From a virus (taxonomy: Duplodnaviria > Heunggongvirae > Uroviricota > Caudoviricetes): a stretch of 36,526 bases of DNA. The position numbers and the translations under genes are program-made. Shown piece by piece: positions 4,233 through 21,645 of this stretch. Every line of letters starts with the position of its first letter. Positions within the stretch are counted from its first letter, which is position 1. Under the pieces are notes generated by a model that was not told the origin of the DNA, searched no databases, and saw nothing but the letters and a program-made list of their open reading frames with translations. The stretch is taken from IMG/VR virus record IMGVR_UViG_2531839145_000010; one strand, given 5' to 3'.

Positions 4233-4531
4233 CAGGGGCTGTGCGTATCCATCAATTAAAAATTGCACCTAAGTATTTCAATGCTGTGGTTGCAGGTCAA
4301 AAGACGGCTGAACTTCGTAAAGACGATCGTGGCTATAAAGTTGGTGATGTTCTTTCTCTTTGCGAATGGAAGCATGGCGTATTTACGGGTAGGGAATGGG
4401 CCGCGGTTATCTCTCATGTGCTTCCGGTTAATGACGTCATGGCAGTTTCAGAACAATGGGTGATGCTATCAATTCGCTCATTAACCCCATTAGAAGCTTT
4501 AGGATATGTTATTGCAGGAGGTGCTGTATGA
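4229..4531 (+). CDS. ASCH/DUF3850-like small protein
   Basis: 100-aa ORF; start overlaps upstream stop (ATGA); call rests on recalled family resemblance. Confidence 0.5.
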
Positions 4532-5385
4532 GCACCATCCTGAAATGGGCGGGAAATAAAACCGCAATTATGTCCGAACTGAAAAAACACCTTCCTGCTG
4601 GCCCGCGACTGGTTGAACCTTTCGCGGGTTCCTGTGCTGTGATGATGGAGACGGATTATCCAGGCTATCTGGTTGCGGATATTAATCCTGATTTAATCAA
4701 CCTCTATAAAAAGGTTGCCGCTGATTGTGAATCGTTTATATCTCGCGCCAGAGTTTTATTTAAGGAAGCAAACAGGGAGGTGGCTTATTACAACATAAGG
4801 CAGGAGTTTAATTACTCAAATGAAATTACTGATTTCATGAAAGCGGTATATTTCCTGTATCTCAATCGTCACGGTTACCGTGGTTTATGTCGCTATAACA
4901 AGAGCGGGCATTTCAACATTCCCTACGGTAATTATAAAAATCCGTATTTCCCAGAAAAAGAAATTCGCGCATTTGCAGAAAAAGCCCAGCGGGCAACGTT
5001 TATCTGCGCCAGCTTTGATGAAACGCTGGCGATGTTGAAGGCGGGGGATGTGGTGTATTGCGATCCGCCGTATGACGGCACGTTTTCCGGTTATCACACT
5101 GACGGCTTCACTGAAGATGACCAGTATCACCTGGCATCCGTTCTTGAACATCGGTCATCAGAAGGACATCCGGTCATTGTTTCTAACAGTGACACATCCC
5201 TGATCCGTTCGCTGTATCGCAATTTTACTCACCACTACATCAAGGCAAAACGCAGCATCGGCGTAGCAGCTGGTGAGAGTAAATCTGCAACAGAAATCAT
5301 CGCTGTTTCTGGGGCGCGCTGCTGGGTGGGATTTGATCCTTCGCGTGGCGTGGATAGTTCTGCCGTGTACGGAGTGCGTGCATGA
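4528..5385 (+). CDS. DNA adenine methyltransferase (Dam-like)
   Basis: N-terminal KWAGNK...EPFAGS and catalytic DPPY motifs. Confidence 0.85.
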
Positions 5386-7796
5386 GCCATGCTGATATGA
5401 ACAACTGCAGCGGCTTTAACGAGGCCGCCGCAGCATTCTCATGGAACAGCCCGAAAAAGGCTATTAACCCTTATCTGGACCCGGCGGAAGTTGCGCCGGT
5501 TTCTGCGCTTTCAAACCTGATCACTCTGTACGCTGCCGATAACGAGCAGGAACAACTGCGCCGCGAGGCACTGAGTGATCAGGTCTGGGAGCGTTATTTC
5601 TTTAATGAATCCCGTGATCCTGTCCAACGCGAAATGGAGCAGGATAAGCTCATTAGCCGGGCAAAGCTGGCGCATGAGCAGCAGCGTTTTAACCCGGACA
5701 TGGTCATTCTGGCAGACGTCAGCGCCCAGCCCTCCCATATCAGCAAGCCGCTGATGCAACGTATTGAATACTTCAGCAGCCTGGGCAGGCCAAAGGCTTA
5801 TTCCCGCTATTTGCGTGAGACGATTAAGCCATGTCTGGAACGACTGGAGCATGTACGCGACAGTCAGCTATCCACTTCTTTTCGCTTTATGGCAAGCCAT
5901 GAAGGGCTGGACGGCCTGCTGATCCTGCCTGAAATGAGTCAGGATCAGGTGAAACGCTTGTCTACCCTTGTCGCTGCGCATATGAGCATGTGCCTTGATG
6001 CAGCTTGTGGCGATTTGTATGTCACCGATGACGTTAAGCCAGAAGAAATCCGCAAGACATGGGAAAAGGTGGCAGCGGAAACCCTGCGTCTGGATGTCAT
6101 CCCGCCTGCGTTTGATCAACTCCGCCGGAAAAGAAACCGCCGTAAACCCGTGCCCTATGAACTCATTCCGGGTTCGCTGGCGCGTATGTTGTGCGCCGAC
6201 TGGTGGTACCGGAAATTATGGAAGATGCGTTGCGAATGGCGGGAAGAGCAGTTGCGTGCTGTTTGCCTGGTCAGCAAAAAAGCATCTCCCTATGTCAGCT
6301 ATGAAGCCGTGATGCATAAACGTGAGCAGCGCCGTAAGTCGCTGGAGTTTTTTCGTTCTCATGAACTGGTGAACGAAGACGGCGACACGCTGGACATGGA
6401 GGATGTGGTAAACGCCAGCAGCAGCAACCCTGCGCATCGCCGCAATGAGATGATGGCCTGTGTTAAAGGCCTGGAGCTTATCGCGGAAATGCGCGGTGAC
6501 TGCGCCGTTTTCTACACCATCACCTGTCCGTCACGTTTCCATTCCACGCTAAATAACGGCAGGCCCAACCCAACCTGGACAAATGCGACGGTAAGACAAA
6601 GTAGTGATTATCTGGTCGGCATGTTTGCTGCATTTCGTAAGGCGATGCACAAAGCCGGATTGCGCTGGTATGGCGTGCGGGTGGCTGAGCCGCATCATGA
6701 CGGTACAGTTCACTGGCACCTGTTGTGTTTTATGCGCAAAAAAGACCGCCGCGCCATCACTGCATTACTGCGTAAGTTTGCCATCCGTGAAGACCGCGAG
6801 GAGCTGGGCAATAACACTGGGCCGCGCTTTAAGTCTGAGTTGATTAACCCGCGCAAAGGTACGCCAACAAGCTACATCGCGAAATACATCAGTAAGAACA
6901 TTGACGGGCGTGGTCTGGCTGGCGAGATCAGCAAGGAAACGGGGAAATCCCTGCGTGATAATGCTGAATACGTTAATGCCTGGGCGTCTCTGCATCGTGT
7001 TCAGCAATTCCGCTTCTTTGGCATTCCGGGGCGTCAGGCTTACCGTGAACTGCGATTGCTGGCTGGTCAGGCGGCAAGGCAACAGGGGGACAAAAAAGCA
7101 GGTGCGCCGGTACTGGATAACCCGCGCCTTGATGCAATCCTGGCTGCTGCTGATGCTGGTTGTTTTGCCACCTACATTATGAAGCAGGGCGGCGTACTGG
7201 TTCCCCGCAAATATCACCTTATCAGAACAGCTTATGAAATTAACGAAGAGCCGACCGCCTATGGCGATCACGGTATTCGTATTTATGGCATCTGGTCACC
7301 CATTGCAGAGGGCAAGATTTGTACTCATGCAGTGAAGTGGAAAATGGTTCGTAAGGCCGTTGACGTTCAGGAGGCGGCAGCCGACCAGGGCGCTTGCGCC
7401 CCTTGGACTCGTGGCAATAACTGTCCCCTTGCTGAAAATTTGAACCAACAGGAGAAAGATAAATCAGCTGATGGGGACACCAGAACGGATATTACCCGCA
7501 TGGATGACAAGGAGTTGCACGATTTTCTGCACAGTATGAACAAAAAAGAGCGCCGGGAACTGGCTGCAAGGTTACGCCTGGTGAAACCGAAACGGCGTAG
7601 AGACTACAAACAGCGAATTACAGACCATCAACGACAGCAGCTCGTCTATGAACTGAAGTCCAGAGGATTTGATGGCAGCGAGAAAGAGGTAGATTTACTC
7701 TTTCGCGGTGGCAGTATTCCGTCAGGAGCAGGCCTGCGTATCTTCTATCGGAACCAGCGTTTGCAGGAAGATGATAAGTGGCGGAACCTGTATTAA
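5382..7796 (+). CDS. A: Replication initiation endonuclease (P2 gpA-like HUH rolling-circle initiator)
   Basis: 804 aa; HUH motif VHWHLLCF and catalytic-Tyr motif YIAKYISK; position downstream of the early operon. Confidence 0.9.
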
Positions 7797-7949: not shown

Positions 7950-8138
7950 ATGCAGGACTATTTTTTGGAGTCTTTGAAGCTCCAGCGCATTGATTTTTTT
8001 CTTAAGCTTGTAGCGGCTAGTGAGTGTAGTGATGAAGAGAAGGGGCTGGCTTTGCAGTGGGTTTCTGAATTGACTGATGAACTCATGGCAAAAATCAGAA
8101 GCCACGAATACAACCGCTCAATGGATGTCATCAGCTGA
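7950..8138 (+). CDS. Hypothetical SOS-regulated protein (62 aa)
   Basis: First ORF downstream of the LexA box, ggagg RBS; Tum-like antirepressor role suggested only by position. Confidence 0.45.
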   Translation: MQDYFLESLKLQRIDFFLKLVAASECSDEEKGLALQWVSELTDELMAKIRSHEYNRSMDVIS

Positions 8139-8148
8139 GGTGACTTTT

Positions 8149-8382
8149 ATGCGCATTGAAATAATGATCGATAAAGAGCAGAAGATTAGCCAGTCTACCC
8201 TGGACGCCCTTGAATCCGAGCTTTACCGCAATCTGCGCCCCCTGTATCCCAAAACGGTAATCCGTATCCGTAAAGGTAGCTCTAACGGTGTGGAACTGAC
8301 CGGACTGCAACTGGACGAAGAAAGAAAACAAGTGATGAAAATTATGCAGAAGGTGTGGGAAGACGACAGCTGGCTGCATTAA
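8149..8382 (+). CDS. DinI-family protein
   Basis: MRIEIMIDKEQ...WEDDSWLH resembles recalled E. coli DinI (MRIEVTIAKT...WESADDWF); ATG 8149 preceded by gaggtg. Confidence 0.75.
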   Translation: MRIEIMIDKEQKISQSTLDALESELYRNLRPLYPKTVIRIRKGSSNGVELTGLQLDEERKQVMKIMQKVWEDDSWLH

Positions 8383-8389
8383 GAAATGT

Positions 8390-8422
8390 TGCTGGCGTCA
8401 GTAATTAATTCTGACGCCAGCA
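8390..8422. terminator. Hairpin between convergent DinI-like gene and cargo operon
   Basis: Perfect 12-bp inverted repeat tgctggcgtcag / ctgacgccagca around a 9-nt loop; no clear T-tract. Confidence 0.45.
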
Positions 8423-8476
8423 CGTTGAACAGCAAGTAAGTCAAGGTGTTAGTTAAAAAAACACCTTATAAGCCAT

Positions 8477-9160
8477 CTATGATTGAAGAGCAATCTTTCT
8501 CAACGTATCAAATACAATTTTTGTAAAATTATTTTCATTTTTAACGTCAATGTAAGCAAGAGCGTTATTAGTAATTTTAAGTTTACCAGAATACTCTAAT
8601 GAATTAACGGAGCAAACAAGTTTGTCAATTCTTATTTTCTTCCCCTCTAATTCTTCTTTATAATATTTTCTAAGGTCACTGCTGCCAATTATTTGCATTT
8701 TAGCTGTAGCGTAATCAGCGACTCTAACTCTAGAAATATCCAGTTGTGTTAGATTTATATTCACATTTGAAGATATTTCGTTGAGCCAGTCCATCGGATT
8801 TATATCAATCTCTTCTAGGCTAACGCCTAAGCCAAGATTTCTGACTAAGGCCTGTGAAAACGGTTTTAAAGTTCGCGGAGGGTTAGTAAGTTGCATTATA
8901 GGAAGAGTATCTAAAGATACACTGAAATTAGTAGTGCGGTATTCGACTCTTTCTACGATAGTTTCGCTTCCGTCAAAATTAGAAACTTGATCGTGATAAA
9001 TAATACGCTCAACAAAGCGTCCATGTGCAGAATCATGACGTATTTTATCAAAAATAAACCCTTTCCCCTTATCCTCGGTAAAAGAATCAAGAGAAAGACG
9101 TTTAACAGCTTTTTCAAATTCAAGCCGTATGTTTAATTTGAGCCACTTAACCTTCTTCAT
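8477..9160 (-). CDS. Cargo operon gene 3: hypothetical protein (227 aa), no recognised domain
   Basis: Start overlaps upstream gene by 14 nt; AT-rich; no motifs recognised by eye. Confidence 0.7.
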   Translation of the reverse strand: MKKVKWLKLNIRLEFEKAVKRLSLDSFTEDKGKGFIFDKIRHDSAHGRFVERIIYHDQVSNFDGSETIVERVEYRTTNFSVSLDTLPIMQLTNPPRTLKPFSQALVRNLGLGVSLEEIDINPMDWLNEISSNVNINLTQLDISRVRVADYATAKMQIIGSSDLRKYYKEELEGKKIRIDKLVCSVNSLEYSGKLKITNNALAYIDVKNENNFTKIVFDTLRKIALQS

Positions 9161-10226
9161 GTTCGTTTACCTCTGGTCCTATTATTATATTATAGGCATT
9201 TTCAGCGGCTGACTCAATTAATTCACTAATATGTCTTTTCTCTTGTGCCGTTGCCGCACGAATTGTCACATTGAATCCGTCTTCTTTTTGATTATTTATC
9301 CCTTTAATTTGATAGGCAAAGTCACAGCAATTTTCAGAGTCTTTGAAAAATGCTTCAACGTTAATTCTGTCACCAACTCCACTTGTCGGTTTTGAAGACC
9401 ATGCGATACGGCCTATATAATAACCTTTCTCGTGTAGTTGAGAAAATATAGGCGAACTATTAACACCTTCACCATTCAAAACAGCTTTCTTGACGAATCC
9501 GGTATCGATTGTTTCTTCTTTGTCTTCATCTTCACTTGCGTCAATACTGCGATTTAATTCTACTTTCGTTACATCATCAGTCTCATAACCATGTAGTCCA
9601 TTCATTAACTCTTGAAAGAACTGGCTTCGCAATGTAGGGTCAGTGATTGCCATTAAAGAAATTTCAAAACGTTCAATAGGCTCAGATTTGATTTTAGACA
9701 GCTCGTTTTGCAGACCCTCAATAACTTTTTTTGCCTCAGGATTCTGTGGCATACGTACTTCAACCTTGTCAACACCAGGGCGAAGTTCTATTATGACATT
9801 CCGTTTATCTATTTGACGCAGAGCGGTTTTAGATAAGTCTATTTCTTCATAGTTATATTCTACTGTCAGAGAACCATCTTTTTTCGCTACGATATTCAAG
9901 CTTTGCCCTTTACTGGGTGAACATGTTTTTTTCAATGCTTCAGCTGCGCTCTTTAATTCGGCCTGATTTGTTGTGGTCTGAAAACTCACACTGGTAATGC
10001 TTTCTCTTGGATCATATGTTTTGACCATCTTTTTTATATGCTCTAATTCATTAAAGCCATGGGGGAGTTTTGATATTTCCTCGATAAGTATTTCCTTGTC
10101 GAGTTCTGGTGATAAAAAAACACCTCTATTTAGCAATAATTCATGTAATTTTGCAGGGGTTATTCTTTTATGATGCAAAGCATCATAAATATTCTTGTCA
10201 GTCGCAAAGTATAATTTTTTAGCCAT
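9147..10226 (-). CDS. Cargo operon gene 2: hypothetical protein (359 aa), highly charged
   Basis: ATG overlaps upstream stop by 1 nt (TAATG); acidic stretch DASEDEDKEETID; no catalytic motif recognised. Confidence 0.7.
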   Translation of the reverse strand: MAKKLYFATDKNIYDALHHKRITPAKLHELLLNRGVFLSPELDKEILIEEISKLPHGFNELEHIKKMVKTYDPRESITSVSFQTTTNQAELKSAAEALKKTCSPSKGQSLNIVAKKDGSLTVEYNYEEIDLSKTALRQIDKRNVIIELRPGVDKVEVRMPQNPEAKKVIEGLQNELSKIKSEPIERFEISLMAITDPTLRSQFFQELMNGLHGYETDDVTKVELNRSIDASEDEDKEETIDTGFVKKAVLNGEGVNSSPIFSQLHEKGYYIGRIAWSSKPTSGVGDRINVEAFFKDSENCCDFAYQIKGINNQKEDGFNVTIRAATAQEKRHISELIESAAENAYNIIIGPEVNEHEEG

Positions 10227-11227
10227 TATCGTTGCTCCATCCCAATTTTTTCAAGATTATATTCAACTACAACTTTGTCTGTCTTTTCGAAGTCAAATTT
10301 AAGAAAAAGTCTTTCATCCTCACCTAACAGCCAGTCTGTACTGTATTTCTTTTTAGCTTTTTCAAAATGATGAATAGCATTTTCATTTGGATGGATATGA
10401 CAATGACGTAATAAAATTGGTTTGCCTTCAGTGAGTATCTGATAAGTTGATAGCATGTCAAAAAAGTACACAAATTCATCTAATGAATCACCGGGTTGAT
10501 TGTAATAAACAACATACCCTTCTGGGATATCTTTTTTAAGCCAGCTAAAAGCCTCATGTTTAATTATGATGTATGGCGATGTTAATAATTCAATTGTCGC
10601 AGGTGTTGTTTGGTTGATGGGGTGTTTTATTCTTGTTAAAGAAAGATCTGGGTAATAGTAAGTAAACTTATCAGGCTGTGGAAGTTTTCCAGAGCCTATT
10701 AATTTGGTTATGTCAGAGGATATATTTATTAAATCAGATATTTTATAGGGGTCAAGTAAGTGTAGTTTTATGTTTGGAGGACAATTTATAACGGAATGAT
10801 CTAATTTTTTTGTAATATTTTCATAGAAATCTTTATCATATAGATTATCATGATTATACAAAAATAACAAACCTCTTACATTATAACCTAAAGAATCATC
10901 ATGAACGTATTTCAATCGCCACTCTTCACTTACATTCGCACACTCGGTAGCTAAAGCAAGTGAGGTTAAGGCACCTTCGACCATTTTTTTACCAATAGAT
11001 CCCACCGCATAGCTCTTTAGATCTGTATTGAGATAGACCATTTCCTCTTCATAAGGGTCTGTGTAGAAAAATACAACATCACTTGGATGGGTTTTCTTGG
11101 AATGTACCTCTTGGCAACATTCCCAATTCATGTCCGCTCTAGCGGCGCGATCCCATTTGAATACAGAGAAAATATCATCAGAAATTTTACCTGCGACTCG
11201 TTGTATAGCCGAAGTTTCTCCACCCAT
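10226..11227 (-). CDS. Cargo operon gene 1: hypothetical protein (333 aa), His-rich C-terminal motif
   Basis: GGAG RBS about 10 nt upstream of ATG 11225-11227; His cluster HCHIHPNENAIHH; AT-rich; occupies the P2 old/tin position. Confidence 0.7.
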   Translation of the reverse strand: MGGETSAIQRVAGKISDDIFSVFKWDRAARADMNWECCQEVHSKKTHPSDVVFFYTDPYEEEMVYLNTDLKSYAVGSIGKKMVEGALTSLALATECANVSEEWRLKYVHDDSLGYNVRGLLFLYNHDNLYDKDFYENITKKLDHSVINCPPNIKLHLLDPYKISDLINISSDITKLIGSGKLPQPDKFTYYYPDLSLTRIKHPINQTTPATIELLTSPYIIIKHEAFSWLKKDIPEGYVVYYNQPGDSLDEFVYFFDMLSTYQILTEGKPILLRHCHIHPNENAIHHFEKAKKKYSTDWLLGEDERLFLKFDFEKTDKVVVEYNLEKIGMEQR

Positions 11228-11445
11228 TTTATAATCGCTCCTTTAAAATTGCTGTGGCAATCCGCCATTAAATCCATCTGATTTGATGTGTAATCTAACC
11301 GTATGGTTTGTATGTGTTTGTTGCATGACTATAGCGCATGAAAATGCATGATCGCAAAGGGATCGTTTATGTCTAGGCACTCCAGTTCTGGAGAGGCTTT
11401 GAAGAGTTCATGCGATTGCATGAAAACCACTATGTGAAGTGAGCA

Positions 11446-11464
11446 GGCGTGGCGGGGATACGAG
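11446..11464. other. Candidate cos site (cohesive-end region)
   Basis: GGCGTGGCGGGGATACGAG; first 13 nt match the P2/186 cos 19-mers as I recall them; lies upstream of the portal gene. Confidence 0.4.
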
Positions 11465-11643
11465 CGCGCGTAACGGGGCGAAAAAGTAATAATCCCGCGT
11501 ATTGGAGAGATTGATTTGAAGTTTTCGGGATCGTGTTGCAATATATTGGCACACATTAAATGATGTTGATTTCATTGACTTAATGTGGAAATGGAACTGT
11601 GAAACAACATACGTCAGCGATGTTACTTTCAAAAGGATAGACA

Positions 11644-11937
11644 ATGAAAACCATATACAACTATGACTTTCAATACTTACGTAAAGGGGATACGCGACCT
11701 CTTGATGATGGAGAGATTGTAGGATGTTCTTCGGAAGACAATCCACTCCTGATGCTTCCGAATGTTGGGGATTATGTCGACATTACCAACAATAAAGACC
11801 GTGAGTCGTTTGGTGGGAAAGTGAAATCAAGGTTATTCAGATATACTCGAGTAAGTGAAGACCATGTTATTTGCAACATCAATATTGTTGTTGAAGAGGT
11901 TGAAGACTCGGTATGGGGCACACTTGTTAAAGAGTAA
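11644..11937 (+). CDS. Hypothetical protein (97 aa), AT-rich cargo ORF
   Basis: aaggatag RBS before ATG; followed by a strong terminator; between candidate cos and portal gene. Confidence 0.55.
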   Translation: MKTIYNYDFQYLRKGDTRPLDDGEIVGCSSEDNPLLMLPNVGDYVDITNNKDRESFGGKVKSRLFRYTRVSEDHVICNINIVVEEVEDSVWGTLVKE

Positions 11938-11939
11938 AC

Positions 11940-11970
11940 AAAGCGCCTGCAGTAGCAGGCGCTTTCTGAG
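11940..11970. terminator. Bidirectional rho-independent terminator
   Basis: aagcgcctgc-agta-gcaggcgctt stem-loop followed by tct on plus strand and a T-rich run on minus strand; between convergent genes. Confidence 0.7.
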
Positions 11971-11982
11971 CCTAATCTATAT

Positions 11983-13011
11983 CTAATACATATAAGGTTC
12001 GAAGCGAATTATTTCTTCGCCCAGCCAGTCGTTAAGCTCCTGCAGTCGCTTCTGTAACGGCATCAGTTCGTTGCGGACAAAGACGCGGCTGGCTTTTTCA
12101 ACATCACCAAATCCCCCAACATTACTCGGCATGATCCCCATCATTTGTGGCGGTACACGGTGCGCAGCCATCATGTCATCGCGGCTGACATTTTTGATAT
12201 TCAGAAACTCATCCTTCGCCGCGACTTCTGACAACGGGATGATCTGAAGCCCGTCCTTTTTGCCGTTAGGCGAGTACATAAACAGGTTGCGGAAGTTGCC
12301 AGGGCCTTTGGCGCTTTTCATCGCATTGCGGAGGTTGTTCACATCCTCTTGGTTCTGCGCGGCATCGGTCATGTACATGATGAAGCCTGCATGGCTGCCG
12401 TTGATGTAATACTTACGGCGGAACAGCGTGGCAGACTCGTTGAGCAGGGCGGATGGAATGGCAGAAAGATAGCCTGGCAGGCCGTAGATCTCCTGGTTGA
12501 TGTCCGGTTCCATCAGATGAAAAATGCTGCCTTTCGTGAACTGATACGGCTGGGTTGTCATACCGTATTGCACAAACCAGTAGGTATCCAGGTCTAACCC
12601 ACGTCGGGTGTATTTTGCCAGCGCAGGCTCAAGGGCGATAACTTCACCGAATCGGTTCGTGCGTTTCTCCAGGTAGGCGTTACCAAATACCAGATAGTCC
12701 TGCACAAAACGCGAAAAAGCCTGTTGGCTGAGCAGCGGGTGAGGGATGTAGGTGCTGGTCAAAATGTTGCATTTCACCGCAATCGGTGAGCTGTGATGCA
12801 CGGCGGCGCGGAAGGTTCGTGCCAGTCCGTCAAAGCTGACGGGCGGCTCATACCAGCGATCCATCTGTACGCATTCCACATAGTCCAGCAGTTCGCGGCG
12901 GTCCAGAACAGGAACGGGATCACCGAAGCTGAATGCTTCGGCTGAAGTCTGGCTTTTATGCTGGTTCTGGTTCGTCGACGCAGCGCGGTTCTTCTTACTC
13001 TTTCCCATCAA
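11983..13011 (-). CDS. Q: Portal protein (P2 gpQ-like)
   Basis: 342 aa; size and position next to terminase in the leftward Q-P operon; recalled similarity to P2 Q. Confidence 0.85.
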   Translation of the reverse strand: MMGKSKKNRAASTNQNQHKSQTSAEAFSFGDPVPVLDRRELLDYVECVQMDRWYEPPVSFDGLARTFRAAVHHSSPIAVKCNILTSTYIPHPLLSQQAFSRFVQDYLVFGNAYLEKRTNRFGEVIALEPALAKYTRRGLDLDTYWFVQYGMTTQPYQFTKGSIFHLMEPDINQEIYGLPGYLSAIPSALLNESATLFRRKYYINGSHAGFIMYMTDAAQNQEDVNNLRNAMKSAKGPGNFRNLFMYSPNGKKDGLQIIPLSEVAAKDEFLNIKNVSRDDMMAAHRVPPQMMGIMPSNVGGFGDVEKASRVFVRNELMPLQKRLQELNDWLGEEIIRFEPYMY

Positions 13012-14774
13012 AAAATCTCCACAATATTGCTGGCATTGGCGGACTCGCCCTGCAGCGGTTCGTTAAACAGTGCGTGCATTGTTGCCCAGGCCAGATCGGC
13101 ATGGCTGGCTTCTTCGCTGCGGCTGGCTTCATAGGTCGGGCGGTTGCCGCTGGCGGTGGTGGCGCGACGGATTGCCATGAATGACTGCGCAATGTCGGTG
13201 TGTCCGGCGTCAAATTCCAGGCGGCGGTGACTGATAATGTCGTAGGCCTTGAGTACCAGGGCGTTTTTAACGTTGGGGTTGTAGACAAACTCCCGGACGG
13301 CAGGAAAAAACGCTTTCACGTTCTCGTAAACCCCGTGACCGACGCCGGTCGAGTCGATGCCGATATAGGTCACGTTATACTGTTCGGTCAGTTTTTTGAT
13401 GGCGTCAGCCTGGGCGCGGAAGTCCATTCCGCGCCACTGGTGACGCTCAAGAATGCGGAACTTACCGCCCGGCACGGCTGGCGGTGCCACCACCACGCAT
13501 CCGGCGCTGTCGCCGTTCTGCGTACCTTTTGCCGGGTCATAACCGATCCACACTTCGCGCCAGCCAAACGGGCGCAGGGCCAGTGCATGAAAGTCGGTCC
13601 AGACTTCCCAACTGTCCACCATGCACGCCTGCAGCTCGCTGAGCGGGAACACGGACGCGAGATCGTCCACGAACTCACACATCAGCAGGTTCTGGTATTC
13701 GTCCGGGCTGTATTCCATGCGCAACTGGTCAAGGTCGAACAGGTTACAGCCGCCGCGCACCGCATCTTCTACGGTGACTATCTGGCGGTATTGCCCGTCT
13801 GCGCACAGCAGGCCGGGGGCCAGATTGCTGTGGGACAGGTCGATGTCCACCTTGTCGGCTTTGTTGCGTCCACGGTTGAACAGCGCACCGGACCAGAACG
13901 GATAAGCACTGTGGGTCAGGCTGGATGGCGTGGAAAAATAGGTTTGTCGCCATTTTTTGTGAATAGCCATACCGGAAGCCACTTTGCGCAGCTCCTGGAA
14001 TTTCGGTATCCAGAAATATTCATCCAGATACAGGTTGCCGTGGTAACTCTGGGCAGTGCGGGCATTGGTGCCGAGGAAATACAGTGTGGCCCCGTTGGGA
14101 AGCACCATCGGATCGCCTTTCAGCTCCACTTCCACTTCTTTGGCGAAGTCGATGATGTACTGCTTAAAGACGTGCGCCTGTGCCTTACTGGCAGAAAGGA
14201 AAATCTGGTTACGTCCGGTTAGCAGGGCGTCAATCAGGGCTTCACGGGCAAAATAGAAGGTCGCGCCGATCTGGCGTGACTTCAGCAGGTTGCGGATGCG
14301 GTTGGTTTTTCCGGCTTCCCACCAGTGACGCTGGTAGTTGAACATGGAGGAATGGAAGATTTCTTCCAGCTTCTCAATCTGTTCATCGGTGAAAACATTC
14401 TTTTCAGGCTGACGGCGCGGGCCTTTGTTGCGGTTGGCGACGTTAGGGTTTAAATCGGCTTCGTTGCCGCCATTGTTAAACTTGCCGATCCGCGCGTGGC
14501 GCTCCGACTGGCGCGCCAGCAGATCAATTTCTTTGAAATCTTTCCCTTCTTTGTGCTCCTTCATAATGAGCTGGCAGTAACGTGCGGCGGTGGTGAGCTG
14601 CATCTGATCCAGCGGCCCATAGTCACCCCACTTGTCGCGTTTTTTCCAGCTGTGAACGGTTGCAACTTTCTCGCCCAGCATTTCAGCAATGCGGGCTACG
14701 CGGTATCCCTGAAAGTACAGCAGCATGGCCTGCCGACGGGGATCGAGATCTGCGGGTGTCAGTGTGGTGTTCAT
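13008..14774 (-). CDS. P: Terminase large (ATPase) subunit (P2 gpP-like)
   Basis: 588 aa; divergent from the O-N-M-L operon; recalled similarity to P2 P. Confidence 0.85.
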   Translation of the reverse strand: MNTTLTPADLDPRRQAMLLYFQGYRVARIAEMLGEKVATVHSWKKRDKWGDYGPLDQMQLTTAARYCQLIMKEHKEGKDFKEIDLLARQSERHARIGKFNNGGNEADLNPNVANRNKGPRRQPEKNVFTDEQIEKLEEIFHSSMFNYQRHWWEAGKTNRIRNLLKSRQIGATFYFAREALIDALLTGRNQIFLSASKAQAHVFKQYIIDFAKEVEVELKGDPMVLPNGATLYFLGTNARTAQSYHGNLYLDEYFWIPKFQELRKVASGMAIHKKWRQTYFSTPSSLTHSAYPFWSGALFNRGRNKADKVDIDLSHSNLAPGLLCADGQYRQIVTVEDAVRGGCNLFDLDQLRMEYSPDEYQNLLMCEFVDDLASVFPLSELQACMVDSWEVWTDFHALALRPFGWREVWIGYDPAKGTQNGDSAGCVVVAPPAVPGGKFRILERHQWRGMDFRAQADAIKKLTEQYNVTYIGIDSTGVGHGVYENVKAFFPAVREFVYNPNVKNALVLKAYDIISHRRLEFDAGHTDIAQSFMAIRRATTASGNRPTYEASRSEEASHADLAWATMHALFNEPLQGESANASNIVEIF

Positions 14775-14820
14775 GGCACAAACCTACAGCCTTGAATGAA
14801 GGCTTTCCCCGCCTGCGGTT

Positions 14821-14838
14821 TGTGTGGTTGTCGGTACA
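14821..14838. promoter_or_regulatory. Ogr/Delta-type late-activator site (TGT-N12-ACA) in the P/O divergent promoter region
   Basis: TGTgtggttgtcggtACA, centred about 88 bp upstream of the O start codon. Confidence 0.5.
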
Positions 14839-14916
14839 AATACCGCGCATTGTTTCACTGCCCCTATCACCGCAACCATAAGGCTCCAGTAAGTTTTTTC
14901 TAACGGAGCACGGCTC

Positions 14917-15749
14917 ATGACAGTGAAAGCAAAGCGTTTTCGCATCGGGGTGGAAGGTGCCACCACCGACGGACGCGAAATCCAGCGTGAATGGCTGGAA
15001 CAGATGGCAGCCAGCTACAACCCGGCGGTGTATACCGCGCTGATTAACCTTGAGCACATCAAGTCTTATCTGCCGGACAGCACCTTTAACCGCTACGGCA
15101 AGGTGACGGCGCTGTTTGCTGAAGAAATCACGGAAGGTCCGCTGGCAGGCAAGATGGCGCTGTATGCCGACGTTGAGCCAACAGAGTCCCTGGTGGAGCT
15201 GGTGAAAAAAGCCAGAAATTATTCACCTCTATGGAAGTCAGCCCAAAGTTTGCTGATACGGGCAAAGCCTACCTGGTCGGGCTGGCTGCCACTGATGACC
15301 CTGCCAGTCTGGGCACTGAAATGCTGACATTCAGCGCCAGTGCAGCCCATAACCCGCTGGCAAACCGCAAGCAGAATCCCGCCAATCTCTTTACCGCCGC
15401 AGAGGAAACGGTGATCGAACTGGAAGAAATCCAGGAGGACAAGCCGTCCCTGTTTGCCCGCGTCACGGCGCTGTTCACCAAAAAAGAGCAGTCCGACGAT
15501 GCCCGGTTCTCTGATGTGCATAAGGCCGTGGAGCTGGTCGCCACTGAGCAGCAGAACCTGAGCGCACGGACCGAAAAATCCCTGTCTGAGCAGGAAGAAC
15601 GTCTGTCTGAGCTGGAGACTGCCCTGCAGGCACAGCAGACCGCCTTTAACGAACTGGTGAATAAGCTGAGTCATGAAGACAGCCGCCAGGACTACCGCCA
15701 GTGTGCAACAGGCGGTAACGCCCCCGCTGACACTCTGACCAATTGCTGA
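14917..15749 (+). pseudogene. O: Capsid scaffolding protein (P2 gpO-like), split by a 1-nt frameshift in an A6 run
   Basis: Track ORFs 14917..15327 and 15231..15749 match the N- and C-terminal halves of P2 gpO in two frames; one extra A at 15205-15210 would restore a gapless alignment. Confidence 0.7.
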
Positions 15750-15765
15750 TGGAGCACAAAACCCG

Positions 15766-16824
15766 ATGAAGAAGAATACCCGCTTTGCTTTTAACGCTTA
15801 CCTGCAGCAGCTGGCGCGTCTGAACGGTGTGGCAGTTGAAGAACTGTCCAGCAAGTTCACCGTAGAGCCGTCCGTGCAGCAGACATTGGAAGACCAGATC
15901 CAGCAGTCCGCCGCTTTCCTGACGCTGATTAACGTCACGCCAGTGACTGAGCAGTCCGGTCAGCTGCTGGGGTTGGGAGTTGGCAGCACCATTGCCGGAA
16001 CCACTGATACCACCGCGAAAGAGCGTGAACCTGTCGATCCGACGCTGATGGTCGATGTGGAATATAAATGCGAGCAGACCAACTTTGACACGGTGCTGAC
16101 CTACGCGAAGCTGGACCTGTGGGCGAAGTTTCAGGATTTTCAGGTGCGTATCCGTGACGCCATCGTGAAACGTCAGGCACTGGACCGCATCATGATCGGC
16201 TTTAACGGCGTGAAGCGTGCGAAAACCTCCAACCGTAGCGAAAACCCGCTACTGCAGGATGTGAATAAAGGCTGGCTGCAGAAAATCCGTGAGGATGCAC
16301 CGGATCACGTCATGGGCAGCACCACCACGGGCGGTGAAACCACACCGGGCGCAGTGAAAGTCGGGAAAGGTGGCGAATATGCCAACCTGGACGCCGTGGT
16401 GATGGATGCCGTCAATGAGCTTATCGACGTGGTCTACCAGGACGATGACGATCTGGTGGTGATTTGCGGTCGTGAACTGCTGTCTGACAAGTATTTCCCG
16501 CTGGTCAACAAAGAGCAGGAAAACAGTGAAAAACTGGCTGCCGATATGATCATCAGCCAGAAACGCATGGGGGGCCTGCAGGCCGTGCGTGCGCCGTTCT
16601 TCCCGCCGAATGCACTGCTGATTACCCGTCTGGATAACCTGTCCATCTACTGGCAGGAAGACACCCGCCGCCGTTCAGTTATCGACAACCCGAAACGTGA
16701 CCGGATTGAAAACTTTGAATCCGTTAACGAAGCCTATGTGGTTGAGGACTACCGCTGTGCCGCACTGGTGGAAAACATCCAGATTGGCGACTTCAGCGCC
16801 GCCGCAGCAGAAACCGGAGCGTAA
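15766..16824 (+). CDS. N: Major capsid protein (P2 gpN-like)
   Basis: 352 aa; FNAYL...ELNG, GFNGVKRA, GKGG, VEDY and GDFS motifs match recalled P2 gpN. Confidence 0.9.
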   Translation: MKKNTRFAFNAYLQQLARLNGVAVEELSSKFTVEPSVQQTLEDQIQQSAAFLTLINVTPVTEQSGQLLGLGVGSTIAGTTDTTAKEREPVDPTLMVDVEYKCEQTNFDTVLTYAKLDLWAKFQDFQVRIRDAIVKRQALDRIMIGFNGVKRAKTSNRSENPLLQDVNKGWLQKIREDAPDHVMGSTTTGGETTPGAVKVGKGGEYANLDAVVMDAVNELIDVVYQDDDDLVVICGRELLSDKYFPLVNKEQENSEKLAADMIISQKRMGGLQAVRAPFFPPNALLITRLDNLSIYWQEDTRRRSVIDNPKRDRIENFESVNEAYVVEDYRCAALVENIQIGDFSAAAAETGA

Positions 16825-16827
16825 TTC

Positions 16828-17478
16828 ATGAGCCTGAGTCCCGCACGGCAGCATCGCCTGCGCGTTCAGGCTGAACAGGCCGCCCGCGAGGGCGGCAGTG
16901 TTCGCCACGCGTCGGGCTATGACCTGATGCTGCTGCAACTGGCGGAAGACCGCCGCCGTCTCAAGGGCGTTCAGTCCACGGTCAAAAAAGCGGAAATCAA
17001 GGTGGAGCTGCTGCCGAAATACGCTGCCTGGGCAGAGGGTGTCCTGGCTGCCGGAGGCACTCAACAGGATGACGTGCTGATGTACGTGATGCTGTGGCGC
17101 ATTGATGCCGGAGATTATGCCGGGGCGCTGGAGATCGGGCGTCATGCCCTGCGTCATGGCTGGGTGATGCCACTGGGTAACCGCAATGTGCAGACCGTGC
17201 TGGCAGAGGAAATGGCAGACGCCGCGCAGAGCGCAATGCTTGCCGCCACCGGCTTTGATGCCGATCTGTTGTTGCAGACGCTGGAGCTGACAGACGGTCT
17301 GGATATGCCGGACCAGTCACGGGCGCGTCTGCATAAAGCGATTGGCGCTGTCCTGAGTGAAAGCAATCCGGCTTCCGCCCTTAATCATCTCAACCATGCG
17401 TTGCAGCTCGATCCCCGCTGTGGCGTGAAAAAAGACAAACAGCAGCTGGAGCGCAGACTGCGCAATGACAGCCGCTGA
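16828..17478 (+). CDS. M: Terminase small/endonuclease subunit (P2 gpM-like)
   Basis: 216 aa; QDD..M..MLWR.D.GD.AGALEI and GVKK motifs match recalled P2 gpM. Confidence 0.8.
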   Translation: MSLSPARQHRLRVQAEQAAREGGSVRHASGYDLMLLQLAEDRRRLKGVQSTVKKAEIKVELLPKYAAWAEGVLAAGGTQQDDVLMYVMLWRIDAGDYAGALEIGRHALRHGWVMPLGNRNVQTVLAEEMADAAQSAMLAATGFDADLLLQTLELTDGLDMPDQSRARLHKAIGAVLSESNPASALNHLNHALQLDPRCGVKKDKQQLERRLRNDSR

Positions 17479-17573
17479 CAGAACGTGCCCCCGCGCACGG
17501 GCGGCACGGGGTGGCGAAAGGCACTGCCACATCAAAACCCCGTCCACCGCCCTCTATTTCAGGAGAAAGCAGC

Positions 17574-18038
17574 ATGAAGTTTGTTGCGCCAGAACAGGCA
17601 CCGGAACAGGCGGAAATCATCAGAAATACGCCGTTCTGGCCTGATGTGGACCTGTCGGAGTTTCGCAGTGTGATGCGCACTGACGGCACGGTGACGCAGC
17701 CGCGTTTAAAGCAGGTTGCGCTGTCGGCAATTTCGGAGGTCAACGCAGAGCTGTATGAGTTTCGCAGACGCCAGCAGATGCTGGGATATGCCTCGCTGGC
17801 AGAGGTTCCGGCGGAACAGCTGGACGGGAAAAGCGAGCGAATTCAGCACTATTTCAACGCGGTTTACTGCTGGGCTCGCGCCATGCTCAACGAACGTTAC
17901 CAGGACTATGACGCCACGGCATCCGGTGTGAAGCGGGGCGAGGAACTGGCAGAAGCCAGCGGTGATTTGTGGCGTGACGCCCGCTGGGCCATCTGCCGGG
18001 TACAGGATGCGCCGCACTGCACAGTGGAGCTTATCTGA
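17574..18038 (+). CDS. L: Head completion protein (P2 gpL-like)
   Basis: ATG 17574 after aggagaaagcagc RBS; position after M. Confidence 0.75.
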   Translation: MKFVAPEQAPEQAEIIRNTPFWPDVDLSEFRSVMRTDGTVTQPRLKQVALSAISEVNAELYEFRRRQQMLGYASLAEVPAEQLDGKSERIQHYFNAVYCWARAMLNERYQDYDATASGVKRGEELAEASGDLWRDARWAICRVQDAPHCTVELI

Positions 18039-18241
18039 TGAAAGTGCGTGCGCATCAGTATGACACGGTGGACGCGCTTTGCTGGCGTCATTACGGGCGC
18101 ACGCAGGGTGTCACGGAGCAGGTACTGAAGGCAAATCCGGGGCTTGCCGAATTTGGCCCTTTTTTACCTCACGGGCTGCAGGTGGAGCTGCCGGACATTC
18201 CGACCACCACCACCGTGCAGACCGTCCAGCTATGGGACTGA
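18038..18241 (+). CDS. X: Tail protein X (P2 gpX-like)
   Basis: 67 aa; position between L and the lysis genes. Confidence 0.7.
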   Translation: MKVRAHQYDTVDALCWRHYGRTQGVTEQVLKANPGLAEFGPFLPHGLQVELPDIPTTTTVQTVQLWD

Positions 18242-18244
18242 ATT

Positions 18245-18460
18245 ATGACGCTTGAGCGAATCAGCGCCTTTATCACGTATTGCATCGCCGTTGTGCTGGC
18301 CTGGCTGGGCGATTTGTCCATCAAGGATGCCTCAACGCTGGGTGGCCTGATGATTGGTGTGCTGATGCTGGCTATCAACTGGTACTACAAACACAAAGCC
18401 TACCAGCTTCTGCGCGACGGGCAGATCTCGCGGGAGGACTATGAATCCATCAATCGTTAA
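18245..18460 (+). CDS. Holin, two-TMD class (pinholin-like)
   Basis: 71 aa, two hydrophobic segments and a charged C-terminus; immediately upstream of a SAR-type endolysin. Confidence 0.7.
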   Translation: MTLERISAFITYCIAVVLAWLGDLSIKDASTLGGLMIGVLMLAINWYYKHKAYQLLRDGQISREDYESINR

Positions 18461-18953
18461 ACGCTGCCTTGTCGGGGCCGTGCTGGCTATTGCTGCCACG
18501 CTGCCGGGGTTTCAGCAACTTCACACCTCCGTGGAGGGGCTGAAACTGATTGCCGATTACGAAGGCTGTCGTCTGCAGCCGTATCAGTGCAGCGCGGGTG
18601 TCTGGACCGACGGCATTGGTAATACGTCGGGCGTCATTCCCGGCAAAACTATTACGGAACGACAGGCAGCAGAAGGGCTGATCTCCAACGTGCTACGTGT
18701 GGAGCGGGCGCTGGAAAGGTGTGTGAAGCAACAGCCGCCGCAGAAGGTGTATGACGCTACGGTGTCGTTTGCCTTCAACGTGGGGACGGGCAATGCCTGC
18801 AGTTCCACGCTGGTGAAATTACTCAATCAGCGGCGCTGGGCGGATGCGTGCCGACAGTTGCCGCGCTGGGTTTATGTGAAAGGTGTGTTTAATCAGGGGC
18901 TGGATAACCGCCGTGCGCGGGAGATGGCCTGGTGTTTACAGGGAGCAAACTGA
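18441..18953 (+). CDS. SAR endolysin (T4-lysozyme-type fold, P21 R-like)
   Basis: Hydrophobic N-terminus LVGAVLAIAATL; FNVGTGNACSSTLVKLLN and RRAREMAWCLQG resemble recalled P21 R. Confidence 0.8.
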   Translation: MNPSIVKRCLVGAVLAIAATLPGFQQLHTSVEGLKLIADYEGCRLQPYQCSAGVWTDGIGNTSGVIPGKTITERQAAEGLISNVLRVERALERCVKQQPPQKVYDATVSFAFNVGTGNACSSTLVKLLNQRRWADACRQLPRWVYVKGVFNQGLDNRRAREMAWCLQGAN

Positions 18954-18954
18954 A

Positions 18955-19332
18955 ATGAAAAAGAAATTAATCAGCGGACTGTTTCTGATGTTATGGATGG
19001 CGCTGTTAATCGCAGCAATGGTGTATCCGCAGGGGATCTTTCCGGTACTGGCAGCGTCCGGCGTTTGGGTAGCCTGTTTGCTGACATGGGCGGTAATTCC
19101 GGTAGCACTGGCTGCGTTAATTCAGAATGGCCCGCTCTGGCAGGAGTTAAGGGCATCTTTGCTGAAGACAATTACCCGAAAAGAAAACGTATTTATCAGT
19201 TGGGTGATGCGATTGCTGATTGTTGTAAGTCTCGCATGGACGGGGTGGGCTATTACCCTGGTCTTTTATCTACTGACCGTTATTGCCTTCTGGATCACCC
19301 GTAATCAGATGGCGCAACAGGTAGCCGCATGA
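18955..19332 (+). CDS. lysA: LysA-like membrane protein (putative lysis timing/antiholin)
   Basis: Multiple hydrophobic helices; position between endolysin and spanin genes. Confidence 0.6.
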   Translation: MKKKLISGLFLMLWMALLIAAMVYPQGIFPVLAASGVWVACLLTWAVIPVALAALIQNGPLWQELRASLLKTITRKENVFISWVMRLLIVVSLAWTGWAITLVFYLLTVIAFWITRNQMAQQVAA

Positions 19333-19757: not shown

Positions 19758-19890
19758 CGGTGATCTGAATGCGTTGCTGGATGAAACGGAGGCCGCCTGG
19801 GCGGTCTGTGCAGACAAAGTGGACATGATTATTGCGTGTCAGGAGCGAAACAGTGAACAAACCACAATCCCTGCGCCACGCCCTCAATAA
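19600..19890 (+). CDS. lysC: Outer-membrane lipoprotein spanin subunit (LysC/Rz1-like)
   Basis: GTG start; lipobox LTLSGC after signal peptide; overlaps the 3' end of lysB in another frame. Confidence 0.65.
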   Translation: MRTRIYATGLILLCLLTLSGCGNVRHSPEVQLTVSGCPRVTPCRLEQAAPRTNGDLNALLDETEAAWAVCADKVDMIIACQERNSEQTTIPAPRPQ

Positions 19891-20723: not shown

Positions 20724-20749
20724 ATAAAACCACATTTATAAAATTTAGT

Positions 20750-21616: not shown

Positions 21617-21645
21617 CTTAAATACCTTAGAAATTGTTTCTCTTT

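Follow-up and report, generated by a model that had tools for sequence, protein, structure and literature searches.

The 36,526-nucleotide stretch of DNA analyzed here (the window) constitutes an entire P2/186-like prophage (Peduoviridae), and the sequence at 11446–11464, which a first-pass annotation had proposed as its probable cos site, is supported as the P2-family cos by homology of both the cohesive end and the flanking core (11417–11471). Two independent cargo slots abut a 150-bp cos module: a left slot (8393–11321), holding the known Rst_3HP defense operon, and a right slot (11471 to ∼11982), which holds a one-gene moron encoding a protein of 97 amino acids (ORF97). We consider this joint arrangement of a cos site, two slots, and an independent moron likely to be correct. 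The finding is largely an ordinary one: the flagged sequence is a P2-family cos, and ORF97 is a conserved passenger in a cargo slot known from the literature.

The 19-mer GGCGTGGCGGGGATACGAG is found on the plus strand at 11446–11464, and the resemblance to the P2 and 186 cohesive ends that had been noted for it is borne out by alignment: 15 of its 19 bases match the annotated end of 186 (GGCGTGGCGGGGAAAGCAT; NC_001317), and 14 of 19 match that of P2 (GGCGAGGCGGGGAAAGCAC; NC_001895). Its first 13 bases are identical to 186; positions 14, 16, 17, and 19 differ (ATACGAG here, AAAGCAT in 186), as does position 5 in the comparison with P2. This base-for-base alignment places the predicted 19-nt 5′ cohesive end, the overlap of cosL and cosR, at 11446–11464. 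An end of the P2-family type, GGCG(A/T)GGCGGGG..., occurs at this one place in the window, and no other site on either strand is within four mismatches of the 186 end (the chance expectation for such sites is 0.09 per window, from mononucleotide shuffles). The exact 19-mer is present in 38 of 121 IMG/VR matches (P2-like viral contigs), where it is the commonest cos variant, and the window's ATACGAG form represents a separate and common lineage. The record of Salmonella phage SEN8 opens at position 1 with the exact 19-mer, annotated as a “putative cos site,” and the same region is likewise annotated as cos (“putative”) in the record of phage Cartapus; both of these isolated phages, and Citrobacter prophages as well, have a 19-mer and flanks identical to those of the window.

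The cohesive end lies within a 55-bp P2-family cos core on the plus strand (11417–11471; TGCATGAAAACC...GGCGTGGCGGGGATACGAGCGCGCGT), a concept that passages of PMC5694545 and PMC9122126 credit to Ziermann and Calendar (1990). The window core is identical to P2 at 40 of 55 positions and to 186 at 40 of 55, and the cores of P2 and 186 agree with each other at 48 of 55. Across 117 unique viral cos loci, the near-invariant columns lie from −29 to +26 (counted from the nick), and the window core agrees with them; some of these columns are fixed by the search pattern, but TGCAT at −29 and GCGCG at +20 to +25 are not. The cores of P2, 186, and P4 share this conservation, which spans TGCAT (−29) through GCGCG (+25), and their cos sites occupy the same place, between the A-side cargo and Q. 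The window site, too, lies between the gene A side and Q, in an element that has the cognate terminase genes.

The core is the right-hand part of a larger block, the cos module (11322–11470), which is common to P2-like prophages with any cargo on either side and is delimited by both homology and conservation. Homology to prophages with different cargo begins at 11322 and ends at 11469–11495, the cargo homology breakpoints (11322 and 11470) coincide with the module edges, and the conservation signal across the 117 loci extends from −124 to +26, with none further right. Two upstream TGCAT boxes occur on the plus strand (11322–11326 and 11345–11349), and a third (11417–11421) opens the core. Among the 117 loci, TGCAT is found at −124 in 69, at −111 in 70, at −101 in 44, and at −29 in 114; the boxes are visible too in P2, in 186, and in the cloned sequence of P4. 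Their role may be, for example, terminase small-subunit binding. To the left of the core there is also a dyad (CTCCAG-TT-CTGGAG, 11380–11393) corresponding to a consensus CGCCAGnnCTGGCG at −67 to −53, and the window preserves it through a change on both arms relative to the consensus; as an RNA hairpin it is unremarkable (z = −1.3). Two minus-strand ORFs that span cos (11329–11556 and 11408–11746) are without family matches and were treated as spurious. A match to Alfamo_CPB from an Rfam scan of 11150–12050 (20.8 bits, against a gathering score of 70) was also rejected, as it is caused by the AUGC/TGCAT repeats.

The core genes that flank the region are A (5382–7796) and the portal gene Q (11983–13011, minus strand; Pfam Phage_portal, E = 3.4e-18), the first core gene past the left end, which is positioned as Q in P2 and W in 186. 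ORFs are present at the places that match the P2 head, terminase, and tail genes; within the window itself Pfam confirms the portal, tail-fiber, and tail-fiber-assembly genes, and the remaining assignments derive from near-identical loci. One of these loci (L165) has P (Pfam Terminase_6N/6C) and a small terminase gene (Phage_term_smal), for which the window has ORFs of the same size. The late region is 96% identical to that of isolated Klebsiella phages. On a map drawn as for P2, with cos at position 1 and Q following, the final cargo before the right end is the three-gene operon, and ORF97 is the first gene past the left end, before Q, an order that the first-pass annotation had anticipated correctly. 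Judging from homology, the large terminase subunit gpP (13008–14774) and the small subunit gpM (encoded further right) would recognize the cos region after replication and nick the two strands at staggered positions, producing the 19-nt 5′ end. A linear virion genome made in this way would start at 11446 and continue through ORF97, Q, P, and the genes beyond, with gene A, a DinI-like gene, and the 3HP operon at its far end.

The left cargo is a three-gene operon on the minus strand (8477–11227), with full-length PADLOC matches for Hp1 (10226–11227; E = 2.6e-233), Hp2 (9147–10226; E = 1.5e-245), and Hp3 (8477–9160; E = 5.3e-144). This is the already published Rst_3HP anti-phage system; Rousset et al. 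(2022; PMC9122126) showed protection against P1 from pFR109, their “hp + hp + hp” clone. The A-to-Q interval in the window corresponds to the published P2 defense hotspot (old/tin in P2), and its resident operon is Rst_3HP itself (PMC9122126). Two sigma-70-like sites on the minus strand, within the cos-left region (11328–11375), are candidate promoters for the operon as consensus matches only (TAGACA-16-GATCAT with a TG, and TTGCGA-18-TATAGT). Their position is analogous to that of the P2 old-tin mRNA, which starts ∼150 bp to the left of cos.

The right slot is variable. Across 89 contigs, the distance from cos to Q is 164–193 bp in 39 and 260–4330 bp in 50; P2 and 186 have no ORF in this interval. 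Other E. coli carry the same 3HP allele (99.7% identity) followed by ParA and a 131-aa gene in place of ORF97, and unrelated genes (e.g., ParA, DUF4145, HNH protein) occupy the right slot of other P2-like phages. The ctx toxin gene of phiCTX is likewise cargo between cosL and the Q homolog. The cosL–Q interval is presented as a cargo hotspot (phiRSY1 ORF1-4) in a passage of PMC5694545, which attributes it to Dodd and Egan (1996) and Nakayama (1999). In phiRSY1, SEN8, and Cartapus, as here, a foreign gene lies a few bases right of the cos core and before Q, with the core genes intact, although ORF97 as a passenger is unrelated to the ctx, Vgr-like, DUF4145, HNH, or ParA cargo of other phages. 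Papers from 2022 (PMC9122126) and 2026 describe a single gpA–gpQ hotspot near cos, whereas the window has two slots split by a 150-bp conserved module. Compared with Rst_3HP at the old/tin hotspot, ORF97 is on the opposite side of cos, is without a PADLOC model, and is outside the validated clone.

ORF97 (11644–11937, plus strand) is a genuine gene. Its ribosome-binding site is good (AAGGA, six bases ahead of the ATG), and its base composition is AT-rich (39.8% G+C, compared with 50.4% for the window and 53–57% for genes A, Q, and P). The ORF, which might have proved to be unconserved, has 91 homologs, and the family comprises 219 clusters at 50% identity, almost all 90–100 aa in length. Identity is 50–60% across the alpha-, beta-, gamma-, and deltaproteobacteria, and dN/dS is 0.09–0.16, with dS saturated. 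The strong terminator ascribed to the ORF was real as a hairpin (11940–11965; 11-bp stem, −20 to −22 kcal/mol; z = −3.9 and −4.2) and slightly generous as a description for the ORF strand, where the U-tract is just UUUCU. It is a bidirectional terminator common to the ORF and the convergent P–Q operon, with the better U-tract on the minus strand, where it ends that operon. A GCCTGC....GCAGGC hairpin is found 3′ of the ORF in all alleles examined, including that of Kosakonia, where Q is not adjacent. The leader (11471–11643), in which a promoter would be expected, is non-conserved: in comparisons with prophages that have the other ORF allele, homology fails in the stretch separating the cos module from the ATG (11644). 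No plus-strand sigma-70 consensus promoter was detected in 11471–11643 or in two other alleles, and inspection by eye found no Ogr-type late promoter (TGT-N12-ACA) with the right spacing upstream of the ORF; in Kosakonia, a plausible promoter (TTGACT-17-CATATT) is located upstream.

Lambdoid morons, as Juhala et al. in 2000 are said to have described them, are units of promoter, gene, and terminator inserted between core genes. ORF97 shares with them a single gene of deviant G+C content, its own terminator, presence or absence among close relatives (it is absent from P2, 186, and the 39 of 89 contigs without a gene in the slot), and occurrence in unrelated phage backbones. As to the promoter that lambdoid morons also have, no sigma-70 consensus is seen for ORF97 in the window or the two other alleles, and one plausible site is seen in Kosakonia. 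The moron in the window is made up of the AT-rich gene of 97 codons together with a Shine-Dalgarno sequence and a terminator hairpin of its own.

The product is predicted to be an 11-kDa, soluble, cytoplasmic protein that is acidic (pI 4.7) and mostly beta; its sequence contains a GD-box-like motif (LPNVGDYV) and lacks any catalytic signature. Searches of Pfam, NCBIfam, and PADLOC yielded no match, and PHROGs yielded phrog_12676 alone (E = 8.5e-50), the function of which is uncharacterized. The AlphaFold2 model is confident (pLDDT 88.5, pTM 0.79), yet Foldseek found nothing in the PDB below E = 0.4, barrels included, and in BFVD only uncharacterized phage proteins of 60–100 aa at a TM of ∼0.5. 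When 88 family members were compared with Pfam at E ≤ 1, the matches were scattered beta-barrel noise (HAS-barrel, OB, Phage_base_V) and none was recurrent. A PilZ label on one UniRef homolog was rejected: none of the 88 members matches Pfam PilZ at E ≤ 1, and the RxxxR and D/NxSxxG motifs are missing from the family alignment. A short, borderline profile match (residues 14–50, E = 8e-4) links the protein to GD-box/cradle-loop barrels, namely the designed double-psi beta-barrels 7DI0, 7DI1, and 7DVH, through the 37-residue pattern ARP.D.G..V ... L..VGDYVE; the PDB search returned no barrel fold at E < 0.4, and ORF97 is not filed as a member of this group. The few longer family members contain no informative domains, and a TetR_N N-terminus on one of them is probably a gene-call artifact. 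No deposited isolated phage in a set of 50,697 phage GenBank records carries the ORF (tblastn, no match), and a literature search for WP_032344223 returned no papers.

The family occurs in many genomic settings. An allele with 68% identity to that of the window is present in phages whose A, Q, and P are 96–100% identical to the window's, and homologs occupy the same slot without 3HP in Citrobacter, Kosakonia, and other P2-like contigs. The left cargo beside the ORF may otherwise be a KAP NTPase, M78/HTH, DUF6236, an HNH-like protein, HipA_C/HIRAN, or none; elsewhere the family gene adjoins TIR, AbiTii, GmrSD, HEPN, and DUF4238 genes. It is also retained where a prophage has lost its late genes. 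Four Kushneria genomes have it amid housekeeping genes in conserved synteny, a setting as compatible with a general cellular function as with one in conflict. Beyond such within-genus synteny, no conserved neighbor was found across 25 loci. The AT-rich composition, the 68%-identical allele in near-identical phages, the defense-gene neighbors, and the retention in prophages without late genes have the flavor of genetic conflict, while for an arms-race gene the protein is unusually well conserved.

Tentatively, and at somewhat less than even probability, we take ORF97 to be a binding protein that acts alone on a conserved macromolecular target and, as an accessory factor of the prophage, has its role in conflict between phage and host or between phages. 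Its mechanism is a guess, there being no relative of known function by structure or sequence. A further possibility, which we hold with greater doubt, is that ORF97 founds a new family of stand-alone proteins of ∼95 aa with a fold absent from the PDB, acting as a one-protein exclusion or counter-defense factor, and that its gene-plus-terminator cassette moves between the packaging-module boundaries of unrelated phages (P2-like, P22-like, Mu-F-type) and bacterial defense islands. A bolder form of this idea is that ORF97 may tune or shield nuclease or NTPase defense cargo such as 3HP and PDC-S49, which would account for the occurrence of both its alleles with exactly these two cargos in E. coli.

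The conservation of the family could also indicate a modulator of a conserved host process (transcription, translation, or stress response) that serves as a phage fitness factor without a direct role in phage conflict. The 50–60% identity across four proteobacterial classes under strong purifying selection, the conserved synteny with housekeeping genes in the four Kushneria genomes, and the lack of a PADLOC match are consistent with such a role. However, approximately half of the contexts examined are prophages or defense-rich islands, and the acidic protein has neither homology to known regulators nor a DNA-binding signature; we consider a host modulator unlikely.

The first-pass annotation had left open whether the ORF is an independent moron or an accessory to the operon, and it is the independent moron that is favored. 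As a functional partner of the left-arm defense cargo, ORF97 might be a regulator, or it might provide self-immunity, protecting the DNA of the induced prophage from the PD-(D/E)XK nuclease of 3HP or from the KAP NTPase. The association in E. coli is marked: of the 62 contigs tallied, 51 have the allele-1 ORF next to 3HP, and among complete genomes 3HP is present in 6 of the 12 that are ORF-positive (Fisher p = 4e-9 relative to all 1178 genomes matching window positions 8400–12100, which were taken as bearing P2-like prophages, and p = 8e-4 against an assumed sublineage of ∼150). Moreover, the ORF was likewise adjacent to 3HP in the strain behind the published clone, and there are instances of each of the two ORF alleles (68% identical) with 3HP and of each with the KAP NTPase PDC-S49. 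Against this, the reverse complement of ATGAAAACC opens pFR109, which starts at the initial 9 bases of the ORF and so leaves the gene out; the plasmid nevertheless protects against P1, and ORF97 is accordingly not required for 3HP defense. The ORF is missing from 12 of the 18 complete E. coli genomes that bear 3HP, 3HP is missing from 10 of the 11 other P2-like viral contigs that bear the ORF, and the family is present in unrelated phages and chromosomes with no conserved neighbor. The PADLOC models for Hp1, Hp2, and Hp3, which describe the three upstream genes, do not match ORF97. The enriched co-occurrence is probably linkage: the two slots are 150 bp apart and most E. coli copies are in one prophage lineage at ybjL, so an association is predicted from linkage by descent. 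Because the ORF occurs without 3HP in other genera and 3HP is active from a clone that lacks the ORF, an independent moron is favored over a fourth 3HP component, and a functional partnership appears very unlikely.

The location of the gene could instead reflect a role in packaging or head assembly (e.g., binding terminase, portal, or the DNA end) rather than lysogenic conversion. In P2-like phages it lies between cos and the portal gene; in a Comamonas prophage it is flanked by the large terminase and portal genes, which share its strand and are separated from it by gaps of 15–20 nt; in a P22-like contig it is divergent from an Sf6-type small terminase gene; in another locus (L190) it is near a large terminase gene; and in a distant P2-like contig it is downstream of P and Q. 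Yet P2, 186, and 39 of 89 P2-like contigs package without a gene in the slot, other phages hold unrelated genes there (ParA, DUF4145, HNH protein), and the ORF is kept in prophages without Q, P, or head genes and in non-phage chromosomal settings. The terminase boundary is moreover a generic moron site, and a packaging function is, in our estimation, highly improbable.

That the cos-like sequence is a non-functional relic, from which the prophage is no longer packaged, is least probable of all: toward its 3′ end the 19-mer departs from P2 or 186 at six positions, and many related E. coli prophages at the same locus are degraded, but the exact 19-mer with its flanks is the commonest variant in viral contigs and recurs in Citrobacter prophages, SEN8, and Cartapus, the window has ORFs where the P2 head, terminase, and tail genes sit (with portal, tail-fiber, and tail-fiber-assembly genes confirmed by Pfam), and its late region is 96% identical to those of isolated Klebsiella phages.

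Beyond annotation, these observations confirm known P2 biology and do not alter it. For annotation, the predicted cos would fix the packaged genome ends of a prophage lineage that is widespread in E. coli, Klebsiella, and Salmonella. The published gpA–gpQ “hotspot” is really two slots split by the 150-bp cos module, and this affects how cargo is delimited, as a right-slot gene is easily lumped with, or cut from, the system in the left slot. Finally, the 97-aa family is a cheap and well-defined candidate for defense and anti-defense screens.

Open reading frame (ORF) calling and family searches identify the window as a complete P2/186-like prophage. An integrase gene cut by the window edge (1-1209, minus strand) is followed by genes assigned by family search to a 186-type CI repressor (1449-2105), a CII-like protein, a Dam methylase (4456-5385), replication protein A (5382-7796), and a DinI/Tum-like protein (8077-8382). 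Next come a three-gene operon (8477-11227, minus strand), the cos region with a 97-aa ORF (ORF97; 11644-11937, plus strand), the portal gene Q (11983-13011, minus strand), the large terminase gene P (13008-14774, minus strand), head, lysis, and tail genes, and, from ∼33.9 kb, the host genes ybjL and ybjM. The late region has 96% identity to isolated Klebsiella Peduoviridae. Within the late (tail/lysis) block, an ORF of 304 aa is encoded on the opposite strand (20750-21664, minus); it matches phrog_4373 (unknown function), and neither Pfam nor PADLOC gives a match. Because the closest isolated phages cover just 89% of 11983-22000, as two pieces, this ORF may be another moron missing from those phages. 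Many copies of the prophage at the ybjL locus of E. coli are degraded, with late genes deleted (loci L205-L208, L212, and L213), which places gpU, gpD, or ogr immediately after the portal gene or ORF97; two of these copies have an IS1 insertion in the first operon gene, Hp1. ORF97 is intact in all of the degraded copies, a look-up made by exact protein sequence and hence biased toward intact copies.

The window contains a cos module of the P2 family (11322-11470). The 19-mer that the first-pass annotation had likened to the P2 and 186 cohesive ends lies exactly where it was placed, at 11446-11464, and the likeness holds: it matches the ends annotated in the RefSeq records of P2 (GGCGAGGCGGGGAAAGCAC) and 186 (GGCGTGGCGGGGAAAGCAT) at 14/19 and 15/19 positions, respectively. 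When the circularized P2 and 186 junctions are aligned with the window, similarity extends beyond the overhang, with the stretch TGCAT.AAAACC........AAG.G.GC.GGCG.GGCGGGG.......GCGCG common to all three; the window core is 40/55 identical to P2 and 40/55 to 186, as compared to 48/55 between P2 and 186. No second site within four mismatches of the 186 end occurs elsewhere in the window, and shuffled sequences yield 0.09 such sites. A search of IMG/VR with a degenerate pattern derived from the core found 120 P2-like contigs (121 matches), among which the exact 19-mer of the window is the commonest cos variant (38/121). It is also identical in Citrobacter prophages, opens the record of Salmonella phage SEN8 (annotated there as "putative cos site"), and lies within the cos that is annotated for E. 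coli phage Cartapus. When 117 unique loci are profiled column by column, near-invariant columns span -29 to +26 around the nick, some of them fixed by the search pattern, although TGCAT at -29 and GCGCG at +20 to +25 were free to vary; to the right of +26 this profile has no conservation whatever. The 55-bp block matches the core that PMC5694545 cites from Ziermann and Calendar. From what is known of the family, terminase would cut at 11446 and 11464, leaving 19-nt ends, and the linear genome would then have ORF97 as its first gene and the operon as its last. Under the P2 convention the layout originally proposed is correct: the operon lies at the right end, and ORF97 is found at the far left.

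Left of the core, the 117-locus profile also revealed conserved TGCAT boxes near -124, -111, and -101 (window copies at 11322-11326 and 11345-11349), a CCAGnnCTGG dyad at -67 to -53, and TCATGC at -38. In the window version (CTCCAGTTCTGGAG, 11380-11393), a change on both arms preserves the dyad. The TGCAT(G) boxes and dyad are kept left of the nick in P2-like phages regardless of cargo, and the same boxes are seen in the satellite P4 (sequence in Table S2A of PMC9122126). Because cos is the only homology of P4 with P2, the boxes are more likely to be packaging signals than cargo promoters, and together with the dyad they are candidate recognition elements for the terminase small subunit. The repeats of the boxes also produced a spurious, sub-threshold Rfam match to the alfalfa mosaic virus coat-protein-binding RNA, whose sequence contains AUGC repeats.

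The cos module is flanked by two cargo slots rather than one. Homology to related prophages ends at ∼8392 (the end of the DinI-like gene), restarts exactly at 11322, ends again at 11469-11495, and restarts at 11644 or within Q; with breakpoints at both edges, cargo is swapped independently on each side of the 150-bp module. Among 89 viral contigs in which Q follows cos, 39 have 164-193 bp between cos and the Q stop codon, as do P2 and 186, in which this interval contains no gene; in the other 50 the distance is 260-4330 bp (518 bp in the window). Right-slot cargo elsewhere includes ParA with a 131-aa gene (beside an operon 99.7% identical to that of the window), a DUF4145 protein in Cartapus, and a 332-aa protein with an HNH protein in SEN8. 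The cosL-Q interval has already been described as a site of foreign-gene acquisition for phiRSY1 and the phiCTX group (PMC5694545), and two hotspot papers describe a single hotspot, gpA-gpQ, near cos.

The left-slot operon is the anti-phage system Rst_3HP of Rousset et al. (hereafter 3HP): each of its proteins has a full-length match to one of the PADLOC models Hp1, Hp2, and Hp3. Precomputed Pfam matches (loci L165 and L195) link Hp1 to GAPS4a (PDDEXK_GAPS4) and Hp2 to GAPS4b (GAPS4b_N, weak), and Hp2 has a weak match to NCBIfam GapS4b; these suggest that 3HP and the two-gene GAPS4 system are related, 3HP having an additional third gene. An 86%-identical operon occurs on ∼55-kb non-chromosomal E. 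coli records (NZ_CP148585.1 and NZ_CP148400.1). These may be P2-like phage-plasmids, a reading that fits the ParA partition genes in the cos-Q slot of other copies.

In the right slot, ORF97 is a real gene: conserved, under selection, and mobile as a single unit with its own terminator. The protein (11.2 kDa, pI 4.7) matches phrog_12676 (unknown function), with 91 homologs in a search of 5.8 billion proteins and 219 clusters at 50% identity in an exhaustive search; nearly all members are single-domain proteins of 90-100 aa. Invariant or near-invariant residues include P39, V41, G42, D43, G58, V60, F65, C77, NIVVEE at 80-85, and K96. Pairwise dN/dS against 10 homologs is 0.09-0.16, with dS saturated between alleles. 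In an AlphaFold2 model built on the family alignment (pLDDT 88.5, pTM 0.79), a long strand at the N terminus is followed by two short strands, a long beta-hairpin, and a helix at the C terminus. Inspection by eye shows neither a signal peptide nor a membrane segment.

As the first gene after cos, toward Q, the family occurs in E. coli, Citrobacter, Kosakonia, and further P2-like contigs (12 of 25 IMG/VR loci), and among Enterobacteriaceae alleles the hairpin terminator moves together with the gene. Elsewhere, homologs lie between the large terminase and portal genes of a Comamonas prophage, beside an Sf6-type small terminase gene in a P22-like contig, near a large terminase gene in another contig, near the integrase end of Serratia and Agrobacterium prophages, beside DUF4238 in an inovirus-like contig, beside GmrSD and a C5 methylase, near TIR and AbiTii genes, and, in Kushneria, among housekeeping genes with conserved synteny. 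No neighbor is conserved across genera. This distribution is that of an autonomous passenger gene, and favors the earlier suggestion of an independent moron. In one distant P2-like contig (L187, 3027-6285; P and Q 58-59% identical), the homolog is encoded downstream of both of these genes and on their strand, opposite to the window, where ORF97 converges on Q. In three viral contigs of 40-56 kb that are not P2-like (L174, at 6445-6528, L175, and L176), a remnant of the Q 3′ end, 28-33 aa long (48-89% identity), comes after the homolog, which adjoins a GmrSD-type restriction gene and C5 methylase in L174 and L176 and a DDE transposase in L175. The cassette seems to have been carried out of a P2-like phage along with a piece of Q.

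The association of ORF97 with 3HP in E. coli is strong, and its pattern is unexplained. The three commonest protein variants of allele 1 adjoin 3HP in 51 of 62 tallied long contigs, and among 5426 complete genomes ORF97 occurs in 12, 3HP in 18 (one partial, a 43% match), and both in 6 (Fisher p 4e-9 with the 1178 genomes matching window 8400-12100 as background, and 8e-4 when the background is an assumed sublineage of ∼150 genomes). Each of the two E. coli alleles (68% identical in protein) is found at least once with 3HP and at least once with the same KAP P-loop NTPase, a left-slot cargo matching the PADLOC candidate PDC-S49. All four combinations of allele and left cargo exist (HCM-26C-1, LR-50, 2014C-3011, and G5; L215, L216, L005, and L007), which shows that the slots do recombine, but the range of partners is narrow. 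It is nonetheless improbable that ORF97 is a functional partner of 3HP: 12 of the 18 3HP-positive genomes are without it, 10 of 11 other P2-like viral contigs carrying it are without 3HP, it also occurs with other left cargos, and for slots 150 bp apart, largely within one ybjL prophage lineage, linkage by descent predicts co-occurrence. Furthermore, the insert of the active 3HP plasmid pFR109 begins GGTTTTCATTGTCTATCC (supplementary table, Rousset et al., PMC9122126), the reverse complement of window 11634-11651, and so starts at the first three codons of ORF97 and omits the rest. The source strain therefore had the window's ORF-cos-3HP arrangement, and 3HP works without ORF97; this and the 12 genomes speak against the first-pass alternative of an accessory to the operon.

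The function of ORF97 is beyond the reach of homology. There is no Pfam, NCBIfam, or PADLOC match, no fold match to its model in the PDB below E = 0.4, and the BFVD matches are only to uncharacterized small phage proteins. The one signal at the sequence level comes from residues 14-50, which give a borderline profile match (E = 8e-4) to designed double-psi beta-barrels, in both halves. This match rests on a "GD-box"-like element, ARP.D.G...VGDYVE, and hints at fold ancestry rather than family membership. The unusually high conservation, the Kushneria housekeeping context, and the lack of a recognizable promoter in the window and two other alleles count against a role in conflict. Such a role is weakly favored, however, by the hotspot location and AT-rich composition, the replacement of alleles between phages with A, Q, and P 96-100% identical, the defense-rich neighborhoods of homologs elsewhere, and the retention of ORF97 in prophages without late genes. 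The cos site and operon are of known kinds, and the cosL-Q slot was noted before. For the 97-aa family, we tentatively suggest that the product may be a binding protein without enzymatic activity, which the prophage would express and which would act in phage-host or phage-phage conflict.
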